DNA of 30,803 bases from the UHGV virus genome UHGV-0140727. The stretch is one strand, 5' to 3'. The stretch comes from a virus. The notes under the pieces were generated by a model. That model was not told the origin of the DNA. It did no database searches and was given only the letters and a program-made list of their open reading frames with translations. A program made the position numbers and the translations under genes. Shown piece after piece: positions 13,251-20,455 of the stretch (its first letter is position 1; every line of letters starts with the position of its first letter).

Positions 13251-13326
13251 TGGAGAATCCGAAGGGACTCGAACCCTTATAAACCTGTTTTGCAGACAGG
13301 CACATAGCCATTTCTGTCACGGATTC
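13251..13326 (-). tRNA. tRNA-Cys (anticodon GCA)
   Basis: Hand fold on the minus strand: perfect 7-bp acceptor (gaatccg/cggattc), T-arm AAGGG-ACTCGAA-CCCTT on the plus strand, anticodon stem CCTGT/ACAGG with loop CUGCAAA, CCA encoded. Confidence 0.75.
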
Positions 13327-13330
13327 AAAT

Positions 13331-13423
13331 TGGAGGAAGATACCAGACTTGAACTGGTACACCGATTTCTCAGCTACTGGCAGTTTAGCAAACTGCTCCC
13401 TTACCTTTTAGGGTTAATCTTCC
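13331..13423 (-). tRNA. tRNA-Ser (anticodon GCU), type II
   Basis: 93 nt. Perfect acceptor (GGAAGAT/ATCTTCC), T-arm ACCAG-TTCAAGT-CTGGT, anticodon stem GCAGT/ACTGC with loop UUGCUAA, long variable arm, CCA encoded. Confidence 0.7.
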
Positions 13424-13424
13424 A

Positions 13425-14159
13425 TTATTTCTGTAATGCGTTCTTCATTTCTGGTGTTGCAATAGTGTCAATTACACCAGTTTTACAAGCATCATCAAAC
13501 CAGTCTGGTAAGATACCTGCTAAGAACCCATTGATATTCGTTTTAAGGTACTCTGCAATAAGGGCAGCTTCTTCTTCAATCATCTGCACAACTTCATCTG
13601 CATAAGCTGTAATCTTTGAGATACCTTCATTAATCTTACTGACAGCTTGGTTAGCTAAATCAGAAACAGTATCAAGACCCTTATCAATAGCATCTTGTAA
13701 GTCACTTAACACACCATTAACACTATCTAGTGTACTGTTAATCATGTCAATAGCTTTTTGACCATACTCTGTAGCAACACCCATAATACCACTGAATGGT
13801 GTACAACCAACTTGTTCTCCTGCTGCACCCATAACATTGGAGTATCCCTTTGCTACCTGCATACGTGATGAAAACTCATCAATAGACTTTTGACCGTAGT
13901 CTGTTAAGGTCTTAGTGGTTGCTGTAGTGCTTGTCAGGCTTGTTGTAAAGCTGTTTAGAAGGACTGTTGTAAGCCCAGCAGCAACAAGTTTCTCCTTCAT
14001 TGTAGGGTCTGTTACAGAGCTAATAGAGCTTACAAGTGATGTAGAGGCAGATACGGTTCCACCGAGAACTGCTGCACCAGTAATAAGTGGGTTAGAAAAC
14101 CCTTTACCGGTTTTTAAGAGATTAAAAATCTCCTTACCTTGTTCTGTCATCTCTTTCAT
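13425..14159 (-). CDS. Hypothetical Ser/Thr-rich protein embedded between tRNA genes
   Basis: ORF track gives 13425-14222, but the first 21 codons overlap a tRNA. The internal ATG at 14157-14159 has an AAAGGTG ribosome-binding site upstream. The protein has a low-complexity Ser/Thr-rich segment and a helical C-terminal half. Confidence 0.45.
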   Translation of the reverse strand: MKEMTEQGKEIFNLLKTGKGFSNPLITGAAVLGGTVSASTSLVSSISSVTDPTMKEKLVAAGLTTVLLNSFTTSLTSTTATTKTLTDYGQKSIDEFSSRMQVAKGYSNVMGAAGEQVGCTPFSGIMGVATEYGQKAIDMINSTLDSVNGVLSDLQDAIDKGLDTVSDLANQAVSKINEGISKITAYADEVVQMIEEEAALIAEYLKTNINGFLAGILPDWFDDACKTGVIDTIATPEMKNALQK

Positions 14160-14176
14160 TAAGCACCTTTGAAATT

Positions 14177-14244
14177 GGTAGCCCAGTGGGATTTGAACCC
14201 TCTTCTCATGTTTTTCAGACACGCGCTTTAACCATATAAGCTAC
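14177..14244 (-). tRNA. tRNA-like, probable tRNA-Phe (anticodon GAA), atypical D region
   Basis: T-arm (GAGGG-TTCAAAT-CCCAC), anticodon stem-loop CGTGT-CUGAAAA-ACATG and a 7-bp acceptor with two G-U pairs are present. No convincing D-stem could be folded and CCA is not clearly encoded. Ends approximate. Confidence 0.4.
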
Positions 14245-14257
14245 TTGGACTATAAAT

Positions 14258-14333
14258 TGGGGTGACCTACGGGATTTGAACCCGTATAGACCATGTTCAC
14301 AGCATGGGTCATTACCATTTATGATAAGGCCAC
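14258..14333 (-). tRNA. tRNA-His (anticodon GUG)
   Basis: T-arm ACGGG-TTCAAAT-CCCGT (sense), anticodon stem CCATG/CATGG with loop CUGUGAA, 7-bp acceptor with one G-U pair, discriminator C, CCA encoded. Confidence 0.7.
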
Positions 14334-14364
14334 ATTTAAGGACTCTCGTAAGAATCCTTAGAAG

Positions 14365-14440
14365 TGGCAGCGGCATAAGGATTTGAACCTTAATAAGACA
14401 GCTTCAGAGACTGCTGCATTGCCAGTTATGCTATACCGCT
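14365..14440 (-). tRNA. tRNA-Gln (anticodon CUG)
   Basis: T-arm TAAGG-TTCAAAT-CCTTA, D-stem GCAT/ATGC, anticodon loop CUCUGAA on a stem with two terminal G-U pairs, 7-bp acceptor, CCA encoded. Confidence 0.55.
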
Positions 14441-14445
14441 AAATT

Positions 14446-14516
14446 TGGTACTCCATATCGGATTCGAACCGATACATAACACAGATTTTAAGTCTGGCCT
14501 CTCTGCCAATTGGAGT
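14446..14516 (-). tRNA. Compact tRNA-like gene, anticodon UAA (Leu-type anticodon, no long variable arm)
   Basis: 71 nt. Clean T-arm ATCGG-TTCGAAT-CCGAT, 6-bp acceptor plus mismatch, CCA encoded. The only anticodon-like loop is CUUAAAA on a 4-bp stem; the D-stem is 3-4 bp and shares nucleotides with the anticodon stem. Atypical. Confidence 0.4.
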
Positions 14517-14526
14517 AATGGAGCAT

Positions 14527-14602
14527 TGGCGGGGGATGTTGGAATTGAACCAACTTCTTCGATTTCAAAGACCGAGGTTTTAACCTTGTAAACTAATCCC
14601 CT
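14527..14602 (-). tRNA. tRNA-Gln (anticodon UUG)
   Basis: T-arm GTTGG-TTCAATT-CCAAC, D-stem GTTT/AAAC, anticodon stem TCGGT/ATCGA with loop CUUUGAA, 6-bp acceptor plus a terminal mismatch, CCA encoded. Confidence 0.65.
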
Positions 14603-14610
14603 TTAAATCT

Positions 14611-15168
14611 TTACTTTCTCAGTGGATGAATAAAGAATGCCAACATAACTCTTTCCCTTGAGAATGCTCTTTCTTCTGGGACAACACTTTTTAGTTTCCA
14701 TCCAATATAAATTCTCCAGTAAAACTGTTTACCAAAGACTTTAATTGATGGTATAAAAGCGAATAATCCCCAAGCATTACTGTTCCACATTAGGAGATAA
14801 CCAGTCTGATTATCTTCAGGGTCAGAACTTACGTTGATATTACCTTTCCACTTAGTCACATCTTTTACATCTCTTCCTAATACATGGTAAGAGAAGTTAT
14901 AAGCTTTGTTTCTCCAGAGCCATCCAACTCTCTGCATGTAGACACCCAGCTTACCAATCTTTCTAATCTTAGCCCATCTTTTAACGTGGCCTTCATCACC
15001 ATCAATTGGGTTGTCATATGTCTCCATCCATCTGAACCCGAAAGGTAAGTGTCCTTTCTTCTCACTGTAGAATGGAACTACGAAAGGTGCTAAGATAACT
15101 GCTAGTATTGCTGCAAGTGGTTCTAGCAAAGCTAAGAAAATCCATGAAGCATATTTTAAGTATCTCAT
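14611..15168 (-). CDS. Hypothetical membrane protein (N-terminal transmembrane segment) inside the tRNA array
   Basis: 185-aa ORF with a hydrophobic N-terminus (WIFLALLEPLAAILAVILAPFVVPF). Its start overlaps the stop of the upstream 80-aa ORF in ATGA fashion (15165-15168). Confidence 0.5.
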   Translation of the reverse strand: MRYLKYASWIFLALLEPLAAILAVILAPFVVPFYSEKKGHLPFGFRWMETYDNPIDGDEGHVKRWAKIRKIGKLGVYMQRVGWLWRNKAYNFSYHVLGRDVKDVTKWKGNINVSSDPEDNQTGYLLMWNSNAWGLFAFIPSIKVFGKQFYWRIYIGWKLKSVVPEERAFSRERVMLAFFIHPLRK

Positions 15169-15407
15169 TGTCTAACCCTCGTAAGGAGGTAAGCATTATT
15201 ACTTGTTTCTGAGCTTTCTGGTAACATTGTCTCAAAATTGACACTTTTAAGTTGTCTTCCACCAAAGCAATGACCAATAAATCTTTCTACTTTTATTGGG
15301 TCGCATTCCCATCCGACTTTTAAGAAAATGTGGGTATCTATAGTGGGAACCCTTACAAACTCAATACTATTGGGATTTTCATGTTCAACGACGATTAATG
15401 TTTGCAT
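15165..15407 (-). CDS. Hypothetical protein, first gene of a two-gene operon inside the tRNA array
   Basis: 80-aa ORF with an AGAGGA ribosome-binding site 5 nt upstream of the ATG at 15405-15407, translationally coupled to the downstream membrane protein. Confidence 0.45.
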   Translation of the reverse strand: MQTLIVVEHENPNSIEFVRVPTIDTHIFLKVGWECDPIKVERFIGHCFGGRQLKSVNFETMLPESSETSNNAYLLTRVRQ

Positions 15408-15425
15408 AAATTCCTCTTGCTTATC

Positions 15426-15501
15426 TGGCGCAGGATAAGGGATTCGAACCCATACTAACAGTTTCGTAGACTGTTGCTCTATCCATTTGAACTAATCCTG
15501 C
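15426..15501 (-). tRNA. tRNA-Arg (anticodon ACG)
   Basis: Perfect 7-bp acceptor (GCAGGAT/ATCCTGC), T-loop TTCGAAT, perfect anticodon stem ACAGT/ACTGT with loop CUACGAA, CCA encoded. Confidence 0.75.
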
Positions 15502-15615
15502 TTACCTACGAGAACACCATACAGTTTTTCACAAACTTTGTTTTTACGTCTGTTTAGATATGACGCTCTAAACTTTTTTGCGATGGACTTATCACTCATA
15601 GTGCTCTCCTAAAAT

Positions 15616-15693
15616 TGGTGTTCCAAGACGGATTCGAACCGTCACTAATACAAGGTTTGAGCTTGCATCCTCTGCCAATTGGGATACTGGAAC
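15616..15693 (-). tRNA. tRNA with anticodon CAA (Leu-type anticodon, short variable region)
   Basis: T-arm GACGG-TTCGAAT-CCGTC, 7-bp acceptor, discriminator A, CCA encoded, anticodon stem GCAAG/CTTGT with loop CUCAAAC. Variable region is only about 6 nt, so it is not a canonical type II Leu tRNA. Confidence 0.5.
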
Positions 15694-15694
15694 A

Positions 15695-15769
15695 TGGTAC
15701 TCACTAAAGGACTTGAACCTTTTTCTTCATCTTGTAAGGGTGATGTTTTACCATATAAACTAAGCGAGT
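15695..15769 (-). tRNA. tRNA-Val (anticodon UAC)
   Basis: T-arm AAAGG-TTCAAGT-CCTTT, D-stem GTTT/AAAC, anticodon loop CUUACAA on a stem with one mismatch, 7-bp acceptor with one G-U pair, CCA encoded. Confidence 0.65.
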
Positions 15770-15864
15770 GTGAAAGAGGTCTGAAGTTGTGCCGCTAACT
15801 CAACTCCGTGGAATTTGTTACGGTCTTCAGTTGACACCAGCGGTCTTTCACTTGACCCCTGAAT

Positions 15865-15940
15865 TGGTGCTCCCACAAGGATTCGAACCCTGATAAGTTG
15901 CTTACAAGGCAACCGTAATAGCCAATTATACGATAGGAGC
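15865..15940 (-). tRNA. tRNA-Thr (anticodon UGU)
   Basis: Perfect anticodon stem GTTGC/GCAAC with loop CUUGUAA, T-loop TTCGAAT, 7-bp acceptor with one G-U pair, CCA encoded. Confidence 0.75.
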
Positions 15941-15946
15941 ATTATT

Positions 15947-16021
15947 TGGAGCATCCAGAGGGAATCGAACCCTCAACCTCAGTTTGGAAGACTGTAATTT
16001 TCCCGTTTAAACTATGGATGC
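15947..16021 (-). tRNA. tRNA-Gly (anticodon UCC)
   Basis: Perfect acceptor (GCATCCA/TGGATGC), T-arm GAGGG-TTCGATT-CCCTC, anticodon loop CUUCCAA, CCA encoded. Confidence 0.7.
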
Positions 16022-16027
16022 ACTAAT

Positions 16028-16103
16028 TGGTGGAGTCACTGAGAATTGAACTCAGTTCCCAAGTTTGCAAAACTCGAATTTTAACCATATAAACTATGAC
16101 CCC
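16028..16103 (-). tRNA. tRNA-Ala (anticodon UGC)
   Basis: T-arm CTGAG-TTCAATT-CTCAG, anticodon stem CGAGT/ACTTG with loop UUUGCAA, acceptor with one G-U pair, CCA encoded. Confidence 0.65.
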
Positions 16104-16109
16104 ATTTTT

Positions 16110-16185
16110 TGGTACAGGTGGAGGGAATTGAACCCATCGTCTTACTGATTAAGAGTCAGCCGCATAACCATTTTGCTACACCTGC
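16110..16185 (-). tRNA. tRNA-Lys (anticodon CUU)
   Basis: T-loop TTCAATT, anticodon stem GCTGA/TCAGT with loop CUCUUAA, 7-bp acceptor, CCA encoded. Confidence 0.6.
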
Positions 16186-16192
16186 ATTAATT

Positions 16193-16270
16193 TGGTAGGA
16201 GACAAGGGATTCGAACCCTCAAACATCTCGTTCTAAGCGAGATAGGTTTACCAATTACCATCAATCTCCC
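16193..16270 (-). tRNA. tRNA with anticodon UAG (Leu-type anticodon, short variable region)
   Basis: Perfect anticodon stem TCTCG/CGAGA with loop CUUAGAA, T-loop TTCGAAT, D-loop with a TTGG signature, discriminator A, CCA encoded. The 5-nt variable region makes it a type I architecture despite the Leu anticodon. Confidence 0.55.
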
Positions 16271-16352
16271 ATTAAATCTTTTTAGAGAACTTCTAAGAAC
16301 CTAAGCAACAAGGTTCCACAACAAGCTGTAATAACCTTAGAAGCCCTCTAAA

Positions 16353-16371
16353 AAGACCTAAAAAGGTCTTT
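16353..16371 (-). terminator. Weak hairpin, terminator-like, inside a 250-nt tRNA-free spacer
   Basis: Hairpin aagacc-taaaaa-ggtctt flanked by A/T runs on both sides (16350-16354, 16369-16371). Orientation ambiguous. Confidence 0.3.
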
Positions 16372-16527
16372 GCATAGTCTTGTTTAATCCGGTGACTAGA
16401 ACCTTTGGAGAGCTTGATATTATCTCTTCTCCGTGACACCTACTAGGTGCTTTATCAGTGCGTACAACAATACACGCGGTATACCAAAGCAACATCCGAA
16501 TGAAGCTTGGCTTTAAATCTTATTAGG

Positions 16528-16615
16528 CGGTAAGTAAAGGAGTCGAACCCTCACCGTATCTCTACAGTGGCAACAGTTTTCAAGACTGTTTGGCTGCCAT
16601 TAGCCGCTACCTACC
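16528..16615 (-). tRNA. tRNA-Ser (anticodon UGA), type II
   Basis: 88 nt. Perfect anticodon stem ACAGT/ACTGT with loop CUUGAAA, long variable arm, T-loop TTCGACT, 7-bp acceptor with one G-U pair. CCA is not encoded. Confidence 0.65.
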
Positions 16616-16628
16616 CCTAATAAGACTT

Positions 16629-16711
16629 TGGCATGGGACGGAGGAGTTGAACCCCTTTGAAACGGTTTTGGAGGCCGTTGCTCATGCCTTAGAGTCTTAA
16701 CATCGTCCCAT
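16629..16711 (-). tRNA. tRNA-like, probable tRNA-Trp (anticodon CCA) with extra nucleotides between acceptor and D-stem
   Basis: Perfect 7-bp acceptor (ATGGGAC/GTCCCAT), CCA encoded, T-loop TTCAACT, anticodon loop CUCCAAA. About 10 nt lie between the acceptor and the D-stem where 2 are expected. Confidence 0.45.
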
Positions 16712-16848
16712 ACTATAATTCGAAGCTTACCCTGTTATCTCAACACTGTCAAGCTTCTTCTCAGATTATTTACATGTTCTGGAAAACATGAGATACAGAC
16801 CACCTCCCTACAGGAAGACCCGCTAAGGCCGTCTAAGTAATCTGCTAA

Positions 16849-17196
16849 CTAATACTTTGCATGTCTTACCCTATGGCAATTTGAACATAGCAAAACACAT
16901 TTGTCAAGTTCATCTTTTAGTTCTTGAGAGAACTTCAGACTTTTTCTATGACCAATGTTAAAATCTTTCTCTGAAGGATTCAAATGATGGAAGTCATACA
17001 CTGCTGGATGATACCTTTTACCACAATCATGACAAACCCCACCTTTGTACTCAATAGCTGAAAGTTTAAGTGCTCTTTGTCTTTCTATGGTTTGCTCATT
17101 AACACACTTTTTACAGTATGAATGAGTTCTCTTACCATCTTTCATGTAGAAATCATTTTCATCCTTGCTAAGTTTGCACCTAATACAAGTTTTCAT
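16849..17196 (-). CDS. HNH endonuclease (homing-endonuclease-like) embedded in the tRNA array
   Basis: N-terminal CxxC...CxxC zinc-finger-like cysteines, then the HNH signature (DFHHLNPSEKDFN ... CSNCHRVRH). ORF track start at 17247 overlaps a tRNA; the ATG at 17194-17196 has a GGAG ribosome-binding site 5 nt upstream, giving 115 aa. Confidence 0.75.
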   Translation of the reverse strand: MKTCIRCKLSKDENDFYMKDGKRTHSYCKKCVNEQTIERQRALKLSAIEYKGGVCHDCGKRYHPAVYDFHHLNPSEKDFNIGHRKSLKFSQELKDELDKCVLLCSNCHRVRHAKY

Positions 17197-17210
17197 GATT
17201 TCTCCAAAAT

Positions 17211-17292
17211 TGGTCGAGGCGGCAGGACTCGAACCCGCATACTCCACTTACTCGGTTAACGGCGGTTTAGAAGACCGCTGAGATACGCCCCG
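17211..17292 (-). tRNA. tRNA-like gene, anticodon unresolved (candidate loop CUUCUAA would give Arg UCU)
   Basis: Clean T-arm GCGGG-TTCGAGT-CCTGC, 7-bp acceptor with one G-U pair, CCA encoded. A perfect stem GCGGT/ACCGC carries loop CUUCUAA, but the remaining nucleotides do not give a canonical D-arm and variable arm. 82 nt. Confidence 0.4.
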
Positions 17293-17540
17293 TAATTATC
17301 TTTAAAGACTCTCTTAGAAAGCCCTTAGAGATGCCCACCTTATTAATCATACCGTGGGCTAGTACGCCAAATTCTTTGATGAGGGATTGGAAGACCTCAC
17401 TGGTGTTTAGCCTATCAAGCTACTGCCAGAAAAACATTGTCGTTTGCATTTATTTTAAATTTGCAAAATAGACGCTACGCAACGAAAACTAAGGTTACTA
17501 TAAAGTAGTCACATCTCAATGTCAACAACTTTATTGAAAT

Positions 17541-17615
17541 TGGTTGTAGGTGAGGGTATCGAACCCTCTTCTAACGGTTATCAGCCGTTTGCATTACCAT
17601 TTATGCTAACCCACA
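17541..17615 (-). tRNA. tRNA-Ile (anticodon GAU)
   Basis: Perfect D-stem GCAT/ATGC, perfect anticodon stem AACGG/CCGTT with loop CUGAUAA, T-arm GAGGG-TTCGATA-CCCTC, CCA encoded. Confidence 0.75.
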
Positions 17616-17617
17616 AT

Positions 17618-17694
17618 TGGAGGTTCAGATGGGAATCGAACCCACATTCATAGGGCTTATGAGACCCTTGCATTACCTTATCTGCGACTGAACC
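17618..17694 (-). tRNA. tRNA-Met (anticodon CAU; elongator or Ile2-type not distinguishable)
   Basis: Perfect acceptor (GGTTCAG/CTGAACC), anticodon stem AGGGT/GCCCT with loop CUCAUAA, T-loop TTCGATT, CCA encoded. G1-C72 pair argues against an initiator. Confidence 0.65.
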
Positions 17695-17698
17695 ATTT

Positions 17699-17774
17699 TG
17701 GTAGAAGTGGAGGGATTCGAACCCATCGCCTGTCAGATTAAAAGTCTGCCGCATCACCATTCTGCTACACTTCC
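17699..17774 (-). tRNA. tRNA-Lys (anticodon UUU)
   Basis: T-loop TTCGAAT, anticodon loop CUUUUAA, 7-bp acceptor, CCA encoded. Confidence 0.65.
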
Positions 17775-17916
17775 ATTAAATTATATTTGTAGATAAGCTA
17801 CCCAGACTTGCTTAAGGTCTGTAGCGATGTGTCTTTTCGGGTTAAATCTAGAATCTACCCTTCCACCTTTGTGGTCGCATACTCACAGGTAAGCTTAATA
17901 ACTTATCTACAAAGAT

Positions 17917-18057
17917 AATTACCAGACCGTTGTTTATCATCTTAAGTGCTACCATTACACCAACTCGACATCTGCCGAGTGAAGGAATCGAACCTTCGCC
18001 TTTTCTTTACCGGAGAAATAGATTGTTTAAGTTTTGCTGTAAACGGTCTTCTGTAAA
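17917..18057 (-). ncRNA. Structured RNA element A: conserved bulged closing helix enclosing a permuted tRNA-like module (Y-RNA-like candidate)
   Basis: Sense strand: 5' TTAC-AGA-AGACCGTT (plus 18040-18055) pairs with 3' AACGGTCT-G-GTAA (plus 17920-17932). Between them, in order: T-arm GAAGG-TTCGATT-CCTTC (plus 17971-17987), a 7-bp acceptor-like hairpin closed by a 4-nt loop (plus 17953-17970), and a D-arm-like GTGTAATGGTAGCAC (plus 17936-17952). No anticodon arm. Confidence 0.45.
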
Positions 18058-18063
18058 TTTGTT

Positions 18064-18145
18064 GAGCCAGACCAAGTTTTAAATTTTTCAAAATTAAATT
18101 GGCTTGAAAATATCATACGTACTTGCTGTATTTGGTCTTCTGCTC
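18064..18145 (-). ncRNA. Structured RNA element B (paralog of A, C, D)
   Basis: Same helix architecture with compensatory changes: outer GAGC/GCTC, 5' AGA opposite 3' G, inner AGACCAA/TTGGTCT, conserved TACAGCAA at the start of the enclosed loop. Confidence 0.4.
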
Positions 18146-18203
18146 CTTTAAAGGATACTCGTAAGAACCCTTTAAGGGAGGGGCTAAATAGCCCTCTCAA
18201 AAT

Positions 18204-18281
18204 TGGCGGTTACGAAGGGATTTGAACCCTCATCATCTCCCGTGACAGGGGAGTATTTTAACCAAATTAAACTACATAACC
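18204..18281 (-). tRNA. tRNA-Asp (anticodon GUC)
   Basis: Perfect anticodon stem CTCCC/GGGAG with loop CUGUCAC, T-loop TTCAAAT, acceptor with one G-U pair, CCA encoded. Confidence 0.75.
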
Positions 18282-18286
18282 TTTAT

Positions 18287-18374
18287 TGGTGTGCCGTGTA
18301 GGAGTCGAACCTACCGAGTCTCAATGACAAGGGATTTACAGTCCCCACCGCTACCATCTACGGGATAACGACAC
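18287..18374 (-). tRNA. tRNA-Tyr (anticodon GUA), type II
   Basis: 88 nt. Anticodon stem GGGGA/TCCCT with loop CUGUAAA, long variable arm, perfect T-stem GTAGG/CCTAC, 7-bp acceptor with one G-U pair, CCA encoded. Confidence 0.7.
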
Positions 18375-18383
18375 ATTTAAATT

Positions 18384-18460
18384 TGGCGGTTAGTCAGGGA
18401 TTCGAACCCTGTGCCATTCGCTTAACAGGCGACCGCACATACCTTATGTGCTTCCTAACC
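18384..18460 (-). tRNA. tRNA-Asn (anticodon GUU)
   Basis: Perfect D-stem GCAC/GTGC, anticodon loop CUGUUAA, perfect T-arm CAGGG-TTCGAAT-CCCTG, CCA encoded. Confidence 0.7.
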
Positions 18461-18470
18461 ATGTTTAGTA

Positions 18471-18543
18471 TTACCAGACCGTATCTTTCAATTTTTTCCG
18501 CTAAAAATTTAATAAATATTGCTGTAAACGGTCTTCTGTAAAT
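18471..18543 (-). ncRNA. Structured RNA element C (paralog of A, B, D)
   Basis: 5' strand is identical to element A over 24 nt (TTTACAGAAGACCGTTTACAGCAA). It pairs with 3' ACGGTCT-G-GTAA (plus 18471-18482): outer TTAC/GTAA, inner AGACCGT/ACGGTCT, enclosing about 40 nt. Confidence 0.4.
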
Positions 18544-18544
18544 T

Positions 18545-18621
18545 TGGAGGCGGGTGCAGGAGTCGAACCTGCCGATACCATGCTAATGAGACATGTGAGA
18601 CGCCCTTTCTCTATACCCGCA
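18545..18621 (-). tRNA. tRNA with anticodon CAU (Met, initiator or Ile2-type not resolved)
   Basis: Perfect T-arm GCAGG-TTCGACT-CCTGC, D-stem GAGA/TCTC, anticodon loop CUCAUUA (U at position 37 is unusual), 6-bp acceptor with a 1-72 mismatch, CCA encoded. Confidence 0.55.
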
Positions 18622-18629
18622 ATTCTTAA

Positions 18630-18709
18630 TGACCAGACCAAATCTCTTCTATGTCCGATTTACCTTCAGATGAATAAGATTAAGTTTGCTGTAATTGGTC
18701 TTCTGTCAA
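18630..18709 (-). ncRNA. Structured RNA element D (paralog of A, B, C)
   Basis: Outer helix TGAC/GTCA, 5' AGA opposite 3' G, inner AGACCAA/TTGGTCT, conserved TACAGCAA at loop start, enclosing about 50 nt. Confidence 0.4.
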
Positions 18710-18712
18710 AAC

Positions 18713-18790
18713 TGGCGTTCCAGAAGGGATTTGAACCCTCAAATATCCACTTTGAAAGAGTGGTGACTTTACCATTTTGTCTACTGGAAC
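18713..18790 (-). tRNA. tRNA-Glu (anticodon UUC)
   Basis: Perfect acceptor (GTTCCAG/CTGGAAC), perfect anticodon stem CCACT/AGTGG with loop CUUUCAA, T-loop TTCAAAT, CCA encoded. Confidence 0.75.
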
Positions 18791-18797
18791 ATTAATT

Positions 18798-18874
18798 TGG
18801 TCTCTGTTGGAGGACTTGAACCTCCGGCCTTACCGCCCCAAACGGAACGCTCTACCAAGCTGAGCTAAACAGAG
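18798..18874 (-). tRNA. tRNA-Pro (anticodon UGG)
   Basis: Perfect acceptor (CTCTGTT/AACAGAG), perfect D-stem GCTC/GAGC, perfect T-arm GGAGG-TTCAAGT-CCTCC, anticodon loop UUUGGGG with G37, CCA encoded. Confidence 0.7.
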
Positions 18875-19039: not shown

Positions 19040-20455
19040 TTACCAGATATAACGGTCAATCATTACTGCTTTGAGCATTACGCTGATTGGGTCAAACTTC
19101 TCACCACCAAGCAGAGCTTTTAAAGTGGCTGGAGAGAAACCAGATACCATTGCTACACCGTTATCCTTAACAGATACTTCGCAAGTACCGTTACGGTTTG
19201 CTAAGTACCAGAATACCAGTTGTGGCATTTCGTATCCAGCTTTTTTGTACTTACTCTGGATTGCTTCAAAGTTTGTACGACCGTTAGCTCCATCAACCTG
19301 ATTGAACTCCATATCGGAGAAGATGATAAGCTTACTTGGCATATCTTTCTGAGTCAAGTTGTTTCTTTTACCTGTCTCAAGAATACGGTCAAAAGCTGCT
19401 TGTAAGTTAGTTGAGCCATATTCAACGTGTCGCATCACCTGACGATGACGGTTTCGTAAATCACCACTCAGTTCGATGAAGTGAGGGTTTGTTGAATAAA
19501 CCATTAACTCATTCTTAAAGCAACCTGTATTGCGTTCTGCTACATACAAGGCAAGTGATACACCAATATCCAGAGCAGTAATGGAGCCAAAATTCACCCA
19601 AGACATTGAACTTGATACATCAGACATACACAAGATGTTTTCACCTTCTGCCATCCAGTTTGGTAGTGCTTTCCACTGCTCATTAGCAACATCTGCATTA
19701 CCATACTTGACAGATTTAATCACATCGTATGGGTAAACAGCACCAGCGTTAATCTTAGTCTCACCTTTTGATAAGGACTCGATGTAAGCTTTGTAACGCT
19801 CTCCATCTTTACGGTTAAACAGTTTTTGGTAACGTGCAGCAGCAAGTGAAGGAATCTTACTGTAGTCAATCTTACCAAACTCATTAGCAGAGATTTTTTG
19901 CTCAACTGTATCAGATAGTGCAGACAACAGTGTGCGGTACTCTTTCTCACTCAAGTTGGCAAACTTGCAGAAACGTTTTACAAACTGCTTATGACGTGGT
20001 TTGACTCGTGGTAACCACTTAGCCGCCAAACCTGCTGTTGCAGGGTCTAGTAATGCTGCTTCTAAATGTTTGAAGGCATCTGTCTCGAAACGAGTACCTA
20101 CGAAGATTTTGAAGTCATCAAAACGACCAAGTTCTGCAATCTTATCCATAATGCGAAGAACCTGCGTAGACTCTAAAACTTTGTCTTCAATTGCTTGAAG
20201 CAAAACAGTTCTGAAGGCTTTACGCTCACCCATACCTTCTCGTACATCTCGCATATGAAGCAAAATACGAACTGCAACATCAACATCCTCACGCAAAGCT
20301 TTGTAGAACAGGTCTGGTAAGATTTCTACGTTGCTACGGCTTGAACCAGCAGCTTTGTAAAAGTCTACAAGAGCAGACATTGATGAAGTATGGTTTACAG
20401 CACCATTTTCAGTTCGACCTGCATGAAGGTACGCATGTTTAAATAATTCGCTCAT
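19040..20455 (-). CDS. vWA-domain protein with a helical N-terminal domain; Ro60/Rsr-like (TROVE + vWA) architecture, DUF2828-like
   Basis: 471-aa ORF. The C-terminal half has the vWA MIDAS signature in order: DxSxS (LCMSDVSSSMS), a downstream GSTN threonine, and LIIFSDME. The N-terminal ~250 aa is predicted helical. The TROVE assignment is inference from architecture and context, not from a search. Confidence 0.55.
   Translation of the reverse strand: MSELFKHAYLHAGRTENGAVNHTSSMSALVDFYKAAGSSRSNVEILPDLFYKALREDVDVAVRILLHMRDVREGMGERKAFRTVLLQAIEDKVLESTQVLRIMDKIAELGRFDDFKIFVGTRFETDAFKHLEAALLDPATAGLAAKWLPRVKPRHKQFVKRFCKFANLSEKEYRTLLSALSDTVEQKISANEFGKIDYSKIPSLAAARYQKLFNRKDGERYKAYIESLSKGETKINAGAVYPYDVIKSVKYGNADVANEQWKALPNWMAEGENILCMSDVSSSMSWVNFGSITALDIGVSLALYVAERNTGCFKNELMVYSTNPHFIELSGDLRNRHRQVMRHVEYGSTNLQAAFDRILETGKRNNLTQKDMPSKLIIFSDMEFNQVDGANGRTNFEAIQSKYKKAGYEMPQLVFWYLANRNGTCEVSVKDNGVAMVSGFSPATLKALLGGEKFDPISVMLKAVMIDRYIW

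Follow-up and report, generated by a model that had tools for sequence, protein, structure and literature searches.

A circularly permuted tRNA-like module in a Felix O1-like phage, probably part of a Y-RNA-like RNA encoded beside a Ro60-like protein

Introduction

The DNA analysed here, referred to as the window, is a 30,803-nt stretch of the virus genome UHGV-0140727. It derives from a Felix O1-like phage (Felixounavirus), with ~97% identity to FelixO1, KhF1 and Bas63. According to ARAGORN, 25 tRNA genes lie on its minus strand from 13251 to 18874, and a 429-nt gap between tRNA-Asp (18204-18281) and tRNA-Lys (17699-17774) holds a tRNA-like module whose parts stand in a circularly permuted order. 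What kind of RNA does this module belong to? An initial annotation had listed a T arm, two acceptor strands joined by an AGAT loop, and a D-arm-like segment, all of which are present on the minus strand, and had placed them in a more extensive structured element that a bulged helix closes, as we also find. We consider it probable that the module is the tRNA-mimicking domain of a phage Y-RNA-like non-coding RNA, here called M4, whose partner would be the Ro60-like protein encoded next door. Together they would form a Y-RNA/Ro60-type ribonucleoprotein (RNP) of phages, with RNA–protein binding and a biological role suggested by analogy.

Ro60/Y-RNA particles are conserved from bacteria to humans. 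One of their RNAs, YrlA, has been likened to tRNAs in circularly permuted order whose acceptor stem is closed (bioRxiv 10.1101/312249; PMC4201824). Its partners are bacterial and mycobacteriophage Ro60/Rsr, and it is also characterised by modification by TruB and DusA (Chen et al. 2014). Five features define it, a 5' GNCGAA(N)G motif and a V region preceding the T arm, the closed acceptor stem-loop and the D arm (PMC4201824; 10.1101/312249), and it is encoded within ~4 kb of Ro60 on the same strand (PMC4201824). The YrlA of M. smegmatis, with a 7-bp stem, is cut by RNase P and receives CCA, and the YrlA search of Chen et al. 2014 took in only TROVE-annotated genomes (PMC4201824). Tandem tRNA duplication/recombination has been proposed as the origin of YrlA (10.1101/312249). 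Among phage proteins, Bas63 gp130 has been reported to be structurally Ro60-like and to counter the 'ppl' defence, and the authors of that report went no further than to suggest that Y RNAs might be among the neighbouring 'tRNAs' (10.1101/2024.10.10.617714).

Results

Anatomy of the tRNA-mimic RNA M4

From 5' to 3', M4 consists of an outer helix of 4 bp, an AGA/G internal loop and a closing helix of 8 bp (together the bulged end helix), the motif UACAGCAA, a V hairpin, a T arm, a closed acceptor hairpin, a D arm, a linker, and the 3' strand of the closing helix. The features are given below with the evidence for each in brackets, where MFE is minimum free energy and R1 is the covariance model (CM) described in the next section.

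18056-17919, minus strand: M4, the whole tRNA-mimic RNA, ~138 nt (MFE fold; CM R1, 94.9 bits; covariation)
18056-18053, minus strand: outer helix, 5' strand UUAC (candidate protein-binding module)
18052-18050, minus strand: internal loop AGA (candidate protein-binding module)
18049-18042, minus strand: closing helix, 5' strand AGACCGUU (MFE fold)
18041-18034, minus strand: single-stranded motif UACAGCAA, directly 3' of the closing helix 5' strand
18018-18002, minus strand: V hairpin UUUCU-CCGGUAA-AGAAA, anticodon-arm-like, 5 bp, 7-nt loop, C at position 33
18001-17998, minus strand: variable loop AGGC, 4 nt, between V hairpin and T arm
17997-17946, minus strand: permuted tRNA core (sequence and compensatory acceptor changes)
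17997-17981, minus strand: T arm GAAGG-UUCGAUU-CCUUC (sequence)
17980-17974, minus strand: acceptor 3' strand ACUCGGC (sequence)
17973-17970, minus strand: acceptor loop AGAU (sequence)
17969-17963, minus strand: acceptor 5' strand GUCGAGU (sequence)
17962-17961, minus strand: UG, corresponding to U8 and G9 (sequence)
17960-17946, minus strand: D arm GUGU-AAUGGUA-GCAC (sequence)
17931-17924, minus strand: closing helix, 3' strand AACGGUCU (MFE fold)
17923, minus strand: unpaired G, in the internal loop opposite AGA
17922-17919, minus strand: outer helix, 3' strand GUAA, pairing with UUAC

The acceptor stem of M4 comprises 7 bp, one of them a U-G pair, and the canonical core nucleotides U8, A14, G18, G19, U54, U55, C56 and A58 are all present together with the G53-C61 pair. 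Two details of the initial annotation had to be corrected: its coordinates, 17936-17987, lie about 10 nt too low, and its claim that there is no anticodon arm overlooked the V hairpin, which is located 4 nt upstream of the T arm at the anticodon-arm position. The Rfam tRNA model, in a partial match, aligns this hairpin as the anticodon arm. Its loop reads CUGGUAA in CHB7 and Sf13 and is a 6-nt CGGUAA in FelixO1, and Moogle has no clear hairpin at this place. When M4 is un-permuted in silico by joining the D arm to the V hairpin, the output of ARAGORN is a full tRNA-Thr(GGU) cloverleaf, and this holds for the window and for CHB7 and Sf13 alike.

In its native order the module escapes tRNA finders, as had been anticipated: neither ARAGORN nor Rfam calls a tRNA at the module, the only Rfam tRNA match being partial, at 22 bits against a gathering score of 29. 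A conventional or intron-containing tRNA was rejected as well. The initial annotation had named an intron-containing tRNA as a fold that would speak against its reading, and the record of phage REP5 annotates an RNA of this kind, a tRNA-Thr. That fold is rejected because the acceptor 3' strand pairs with the required upstream segment, which is invariant, at only 5/7 positions, whereas its downstream partner pairs at 7/7 and covaries. The other adverse case raised there, tRNA halves in a host genome, found no backing, with no match in 5,426 E. coli genomes and no special similarity to the tRNAs of the phage. A supposedly conserved 'anticodon-like stem' stacked on the D arm (CUUAA/UUAAG) is doubtful; it appears in the MFE fold of the window, but changes in its 5' strand are uncompensated in CHB7 and Sf13.

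A phage family of modules with covarying helices

The 429-nt spacer with its module is conserved across three Ounavirinae genera, and Mooglevirus and Suspvirus keep the same synteny: the Ro-like gene, the tRNAs from Pro to Asp, the element, then the tRNAs Lys, Met and Ile. A protein-coding spacer was rejected, as no open reading frame (ORF) longer than 57 aa overlaps it and most candidates start with a codon other than ATG. The spacer instead fits an RNA, because it shows both indels and compensatory changes. The acceptor hairpin in particular is compensatory across genera, reading GUCGAGU/ACUCGGC, GGCGUGU/ACACGUU (with a UACG loop) and GAAGGGU/ACCCUUC (with a GCCAAACA loop).

A total of 80 viral contigs encoding homologues of the 471-aa Ro60-like protein described below, mostly 39-47% identical to it, were fetched and scanned for a pattern of T arm, then 7-bp hairpin, then D arm. 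Modules were found in many of these contigs, none of them overlapping an ARAGORN tRNA, and all had the wider architecture of closing helix, (U)UMCAGCAA motif, V region and permuted tRNA core. R1 was built from 16 sequences and searched against 934 kb on both strands. It returned 116 matches, a number that includes tRNA-dimer false positives without the motif, and every match lies on the strand of the Ro-like gene. Nine strong matches are new, being outside the seed, and many of the motif-bearing ones lie 10-700 nt from the Ro60-like gene. M4 in the window scores 94.9 bits (E ~1e-15), although E-values are rough here owing to a shortened CM calibration. A second covariance model, R2, represents the mini modules presented below; its matches are all on the strand of the Ro-like gene (68/68), typically immediately past the stop codon of that gene or immediately ahead of its start codon. 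With R1 and R2 combined, at least one module is found in ~54 of 75 diverse loci. Three negative controls were searched: a lambdoid prophage, a 50-kb stretch of mycobacteriophage Bxz1, and the tRNA region of T5, which contains stable RNAs in addition to its 25 tRNAs. R2 matched nothing in them, and no R1 match exceeded 24.7 bits.

Across 25 strong CM matches, nine of them outside the seed, pairing over the closing, T, acceptor and D helices amounts to 95%, compared to 37-47% for slid partners, and double changes are seen at 19 of 24 pairs. In the family, double changes have affected each of the seven acceptor pairs. For the closing helix, the same 25 matches give 90% pairing and compensatory changes at seven of the eight pairs. 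In a broader set of 87 distinct motif-bearing modules, pairing at 7 bp of this helix is 94-100% and a single position can show as many as four or five pair types, while a row-shuffled control reaches 63% at most; the conserved stem-adjacent motif in this set is CMGCAA. The conserved spacer, the compensatory acceptor changes, the CM score and the pairing show that the tRNA-like module is more than chance. Sequence and covariation bear out the earlier description of the module as tRNA-like, circularly permuted and closed at the acceptor end by a hairpin.

Positions of the tRNA tertiary core were also compared. Of 37 scanned rows, 11 have G:C and nine have A:U at the Levitt pair 15:48, and several of the remaining rows lack a clear tRNA-like core. 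At 18:55, the T-loop change U55-to-G occurs only with the D-loop change G18-to-A (2/2; Fisher p = 0.006), such that the two members with UGC rather than UUC in the T loop are also the two tRNA-like members with AG rather than GG in the D loop. An acceptor hairpin of 6 bp or more is present in 22 non-redundant members, and in nine of these the acceptor 3' strand runs straight into an NCCA at the start of the loop (p = 2e-11). This encoded NCCA could be a relic of tandem tRNA genes or could mark those members that RNase P opens to expose CCA, in the way known from the M. smegmatis YrlA (PMC4201824). All tRNAs of the phage encode CCA. In the window lineage the hairpin more likely stays closed, because its tetraloops (AGAU, AGGU, UACG) are tight.

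Three mini modules share the helix and motif of M4

Three further modules, upstream of M4 in the same tRNA region, contain the helix and motif found in M4, although they enclose only a small hairpin.

18145-18064, minus strand: M3, mini module without a tRNA-like part (fold; CM R2, 42.8 bits, E = 6e-6)
18541-18471, minus strand: M2, mini module between tRNA-Met and tRNA-Asn (R1, 31.8 bits; R2, 46.3 bits; fold)
18708-18630, minus strand: M1, mini module between tRNA-Glu and tRNA-Met (R2, 45.4 bits; fold)

The base of M3, for example, reads GAGC-AGA-AGACCAA...UACAGCAA...UUGGUCU-G-GCUC. Constant in all four modules are AGA/G, AGACC/GGUCU and ACAGCAA, and the outer 4 bp covary (UGAC/GUCA, UUAC/GUAA and GAGC/GCUC). 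A constant base with a covarying outer helix is what a common protein-binding site would be expected to look like. In Rfam 15 and the literature searched, we found no description of RNAs of the M1-M4 type, save for the PhageMaP speculation.

Some mini modules elsewhere (locus L068, 7448-7521; L026, 4981-5053; L011, 8458-8529) enclose only an acceptor-like minihelix, with neither T nor D arm. The loop of such a minihelix begins with GCCA, as in UUUUCC-GCCAACAAUU-GGAAAA. The region of M3 and M4 is mis-annotated in several GenBank records; in Bas63 (L089, MZ501086, 2820-3094) it carries antisense 'hypothetical protein' genes, bas63_0137 and bas63_0138, and in REP5 (L087, 358-488) it is given as a 131-nt tRNA-Thr(GGT).

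A Ro60-fold protein is encoded upstream

The presumed protein partner is encoded on the same strand as M4, which lies 1.0 kb downstream of its gene.

19040-20455, minus strand: gene for a 471-aa Ro60-fold protein, presumed partner (Pfam, AlphaFold, Foldseek, synteny)

The only Pfam matches of the protein are DUF2828 and DUF7788, and it falls in PHROG 850, 'RNA-binding protein'. An AlphaFold model made with 37 homologues (pLDDT 88, pTM 0.88) is all-helical over residues 1-265 and alpha/beta over residues 270-470. In a Foldseek search the top 11 PDB matches of this model are all Ro60/Rsr proteins, matched over the full length (E ~2e-8, TM 0.5-0.66) and coming from Xenopus, human, Deinococcus and the Thermus phage phiLo; phiLo Ro60 (PDB 9KOP, 9L5Y) is among the best. 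The MIDAS (DxSxS) residues D279, S281 and S283 are invariant, as are T349 and D381. In predicted fold and in residues, then, the protein has the HEAT-repeat ring and the vWA domain with MIDAS that characterise the Ro60 family. Homology to TROVE at the sequence level was considered and rejected, since nothing but the MIDAS stretch aligns. The gene is syntenic with bas63_0130, making the protein the counterpart of Bas63 gp130.

Across loci, no consistent protein neighbour was found other than the Ro60-like gene. In single loci the gene and its RNA cluster adjoin an RNA ligase or a nucleotidyltransferase of the PolyA_pol-head (CCA-adding/poly(A) polymerase) type (L029, 2660-3715; L016, 7839-8573).

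19021-18993 and 18930-18901, minus strand: two promoter-like sites between the Ro60-like gene and the first tRNA (10/12 consensus matches each)

These two sites probably start a transcript that contains the tRNAs together with M1-M4. The evidence is weak, because the total of promoter-like sites that a consensus scan finds in the region is not above the shuffled expectation.

Discussion

Comparison with YrlA and other known systems

The closest likeness is to YrlA. In both, the parts follow in the order 5' stem strand, V, T arm, closed acceptor stem-loop, UA/UG, D arm and 3' stem strand; the nucleotides of the tRNA elbow are conserved, with covariation of the Levitt pair; and the acceptor stem varies in length. 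Both adjoin a gene for a Ro60-fold protein on the same strand, M4 lying well within the ~4 kb typical of YrlA, and both have a smaller sibling RNA with a common protein-binding stem, YrlB in the case of YrlA. The two differ in the motif beside the stem, which is (U)UMCAGCAA here and GNCGAA(N)G/CGAA in YrlA, and in the presumed partner protein, which here is of the DUF2828/DUF7788 type. Several members of the phage family, including the window copy, also keep an anticodon-arm-like hairpin and a 4-5-nt variable loop, whereas the YrlA of S. Typhimurium has no anticodon loop. Unlike YrlA, the modules occur up to four per genome, interleaved with tRNA genes, and frequently have NCCA after the acceptor 3' strand.

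The Rfam model of YrlA, RF02553, scores members of the phage family at 39.2, 38.9, 36.7, 28.7, 26.7 and 21.3 bits, against a gathering score of 69. In the positive control Bxz1, RF02553 matches just upstream of the TROVE protein gp220 with 32.5 bits, also below the gathering score, and R1 matches the same YrlA spot with 24.7 bits; the Bxz1 protein itself matches both Pfam families, TROVE and vWA_Ro60. The M1-M4 family is one of YrlA-like architecture with recognisable sequence and structure, filed outside RF02553.

The phiLo Ro60 with its RNAs Yrl1 and Yrl2 (PMC12135203) is comparable in that a phage Ro60-fold protein adjoins at least two small stem-bulge-stem RNAs. The phiLo RNAs differ in carrying the CGAA motif and in having no tRNA-like domain, and for them binding and complexes with PNPase were shown experimentally (PMC12135203), while M1-M4 are known here from sequence.

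In the tRNA region of phage T5 (NC_005859), the small stable RNAs RNA1, RNA2 and RNA3 likewise occur among tRNA genes, and some are called tRNA-like, but neither R1 nor R2 matches them. Eight stable RNAs are annotated in that region (L090, 15284-18949), three of them as tRNA-like.

Permuted tRNA genes have reportedly been described in Cyanidioschyzon merolae and Thermofilum (Soma et al. 2007, Chan et al. 2011). They resemble M4 in that the 3' half of the tRNA is encoded upstream of the 5' half and a short linker joins the acceptor ends. They differ in having a bulge-helix-bulge splice motif at the junction and a canonical, conserved anticodon loop, and in giving rise to normal decoding tRNAs by way of a splicing endonuclease, a ligase and a circular intermediate. 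M4, by contrast, belongs to a phage of a bacterial host, its junction is a long conserved helix (8 + 4 bp with the AGA/G loop) common to modules that have no tRNA part, and its anticodon-like loop is degenerate among close relatives.

A Y-RNA-like particle and the case against it

By analogy with Ro60/Y RNA and YrlA, the following sequence of events can be proposed. M1-M4 would be co-transcribed with the tRNAs, and RNase P and the 3'-end tRNA-processing enzymes that act on the flanking tRNAs would release them. The bulged helix and the CAGCAA motif may then bind the Ro60-like ring, and the L-shaped tRNA elbow of M4 could recruit, or act as a decoy for, a tRNA-binding factor of host or phage. 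The resulting RNP might serve RNA surveillance or counter-defence during infection. We know of no partner identified so far for the tRNA-like domain of YrlA.

Several observations weigh against this interpretation. The likeness to YrlA that the initial annotation had drawn stands for architecture (V - T - acceptor - D) and context, and fails at the level of sequence: RF02553 gives zero matches on the window at E <= 10, and the GNCGAA/CGAA motif is absent near the 5' end of M4, where the 5' strand is AGACCGUUUACAGCAA. The sole GGCGAAG in M4 forms the junction of V and T arm and is not conserved in Moogle. M4 itself has the non-canonical combination A15:C48, and its MFE is unremarkable (z = -1.55) and is not relied on as evidence. 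By R1 and R2, ~21 of the 75 loci have no module. The pairing statistics must be read with care, since the scanner chose the seed sequences by their T, D and acceptor helices and CM alignments favour the structure of the model. On the protein side, no Pfam TROVE or vWA_Ro60 match is obtained even at E <= 10, and similarity to Ro60 in sequence is marginal: it does not extend beyond the MIDAS stretch, and searching PDB sequences with a profile yields E = 0.72. Expression, stability and protein binding of M1-M4 are predictions, and adjacency to the gene would also fit a cis-acting autoregulatory site.

A more far-reaching version of the Y-RNA-like interpretation can be offered tentatively, and we regard it as unlikely rather than probable. 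Ro60-like proteins of the DUF2828 type might display circularly permuted, near-complete tRNAs on the scaffold of helix and CAGCAA motif, so that the RNP would be a programmable tRNA decoy or sensor, or an aminoacylatable two-piece tRNA mimic. The anticodon-arm identities do differ among members (Thr, Arg, Asn, Tyr and Met), and in many members RNase P could expose an encoded CCA end. As a decoy or sensor, the particle would neutralise or detect host immunity that targets tRNAs; in neither form would it be a classical PNPase tether.

Alternative explanations

An explanation that we hold to be rather unlikely treats the RNAs as cis-acting elements, the helix and CAGCAA modules being autoregulatory or processing/punctuation sites and the tRNA-like core an entry point for RNase P or RNase E. 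tRNA-like structures are established as processing signals, many modules abut the start or stop of the Ro60-like gene at 8-300 nt, and those in the window sit between tRNAs in one probable transcription unit. However, the window modules are found 0.3-1.1 kb downstream of the gene with promoters and tRNAs in between, a genome can carry up to four copies with very different inserts, and tertiary features of tRNA are kept beyond what a cleavage signal needs. The architecture moreover parallels that of Y RNAs for which binding was demonstrated experimentally (PMC4201824; PMC12135203), and a cis element of this type would still imply binding by the same protein, thereby overlapping with the Y-RNA-like explanation. 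It is decidedly improbable that M4 is instead a functional, circularly permuted tRNA-Thr(GGU), in which RNase P and 3' trimming or CCA addition would open the acceptor loop and the 26/27 junction would be held by the helix or joined by a ligase. Such a role would suit the 7-bp acceptor stem, the full cloverleaf obtained upon un-permutation (other family members yield other tRNAs in ARAGORN), and the NCCA of nine of the 22 relatives. It would also recall the RNase P cut and CCA of the M. smegmatis YrlA (PMC4201824) and complement the only other tRNA-Thr of the phage, which has a UGU anticodon. Yet the anticodon loop is not kept, with C33 in the window, a 6-nt loop in FelixO1 and a degenerate hairpin in Moogle and HP1. 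The window loop is a 4-nt AGAU lacking CCA, CHB7 and Sf13 have a UACG tetraloop, and some relatives have acceptor stems of only 0-3 bp. The scaffold is common to modules without any tRNA part, and a large helix at 26/27 would be hard to square with entry into the ribosome.

The part order T arm, acceptor, D is also that of a permuted ssrA gene, and M4 could in principle be the acceptor part of a two-piece permuted tmRNA working with a tag-like RNA located 500 nt downstream, though we judge this highly improbable. The two-piece tmRNA models RF04321 and RF01849 have a T arm, an acceptor 3' strand (CCA), a linker and an acceptor 5' strand, with a helix at, or replacing, the anticodon stem. The tag region fits the tmRNA resume-codon consensus (RF04321, 32.5 bits; RF00023, positions 84-140), and in Moogle and HP1 ARAGORN calls a permuted tmRNA that combines the tag ANDNVFLAVA with the T arm, the acceptor 3' strand and the GCCA of the module. 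On inspection, the '5' tRNA domain' of that call is really tRNA-Lys, the Moogle call being a chimera of M4, tRNA-Lys and the distant tag, while the T arm in the RF04321 alignment is in fact that of tRNA-Ile; on M4 itself RF04321 has no match. M4 furthermore lacks G3:U70, an identity element of alanine and tmRNA, having C-G at 3:70 in the window and CHB7 and A-U in Moogle. It has a full, canonical D stem, which tmRNA does not. Nor is any tag reading frame contiguous with it; three tRNAs intervene before the tag, whose 11/12 promoter is separate. Phages with a genuine tmRNA, such as that of locus L085, carry the modules separately. The least probable account takes the module for a non-functional scar of tandem tRNA duplication or recombination, made of the anticodon-to-3' part of one copy and the 5'-to-D part of the next. 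This is the origin proposed for YrlA (10.1101/312249), it would explain the order of the parts and the loops of NCCA plus short spacer, and the CCA encoded by all phage tRNAs is in keeping with it. A scar would not be expected to persist in three genera with compensatory changes, and in very distant phages, nor to be embedded in a conserved helix and motif not derived from tRNA. The best identity to the phage's own tRNAs is 0.76, within the tRNA-to-tRNA baseline (mean 0.63, max 0.82), and there is no similarity to E. coli genomes. Duplication may well describe the origin of the module, though not its present state.

If M1-M4 are indeed Y-RNA-like, they provide RNA candidates for a second, sequence-divergent Ro60-like branch (DUF2828/DUF7788; >2,500 homologues) that is widespread in phages, including the Felix O1 group and the BASEL phage Bas63. 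A published guess at Y RNAs is thereby turned into four testable RNAs with a defined candidate binding motif. The analysis also corrects recurrent GenBank mis-annotations, and the CMs could seed a new Rfam family.

Neighbouring elements

The tag-like RNA mentioned above resembles the mRNA-like domain of tmRNA, and is followed directly by an unusual tRNA gene.

17525-17497, minus strand: promoter of the tag-like RNA (TTGACA-17-TATAGT)
17293-17500, minus strand: tag-like RNA
17447-17418, minus strand, with stops at 17417-17412: tag, AAAAUAAAU GCA AAC GAC AAU GUU UUU CUG GCA GUA GCU UGA UAG
17214-17292, minus strand: tRNA-Arg(UCU), directly after the tag-like RNA

The encoded peptide is ANDNVFLAVA (E. 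coli SsrA, ANDENYALAA). Both Rfam matches of the tag-like RNA are sub-threshold, and a tRNA-like domain of its own is not evident. The RNA is conserved in three genera, and a hairpin after the stop codon covaries. Copies that are ~80% identical are found, unannotated, in 339 of 5,426 E. coli genomes, at 97 chromosomal and 247 plasmid places. In a lambdoid prophage (L088, E. coli NZ_AP022095.1, 2500-2720), a tag-like element with the tag ANEEMYLAVA lies between the Q antiterminator and the holin, with a T-arm-like hairpin downstream. They may represent a family, so far undescribed, that derives from tmRNA and is carried by mobile elements. Genuine tmRNA genes are also present in some of the Ro60-like contigs, separate from the Y-like modules (L085, 1425-1837; L026, 1317-1767; L028, L031, L037 and L045); that of L085 is an alpha-type permuted tmRNA scoring 100.7 bits.

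The tRNA-Arg(UCU) was missed by ARAGORN and scores 31.7 bits with the Rfam tRNA model. It has G3:U70 and an encoded ACCA; its variable region is 20 nt long, and 4 nt stand where the D arm would be. It overlaps the start of an ORF at 16849-17247, whose syntenic counterpart in FelixO1 is annotated as an HNH endonuclease.

Two further conserved structures flank the modules.

17775-17916, minus strand: conserved long branched hairpin of ~140 nt between M4 and tRNA-Lys
18150-18203, minus strand: two strongly conserved hairpins directly 3' of tRNA-Asp

The long hairpin has neither a CAGCAA motif nor an Rfam match, and shows compensatory changes at 8 of 45 predicted pairs across genera. The two hairpins behind tRNA-Asp read GAGAGGGC-UAUUU-AGCCCCUC and CCUUAAAGGGUUCUUACGAGUAUCCUUUAAAGG.

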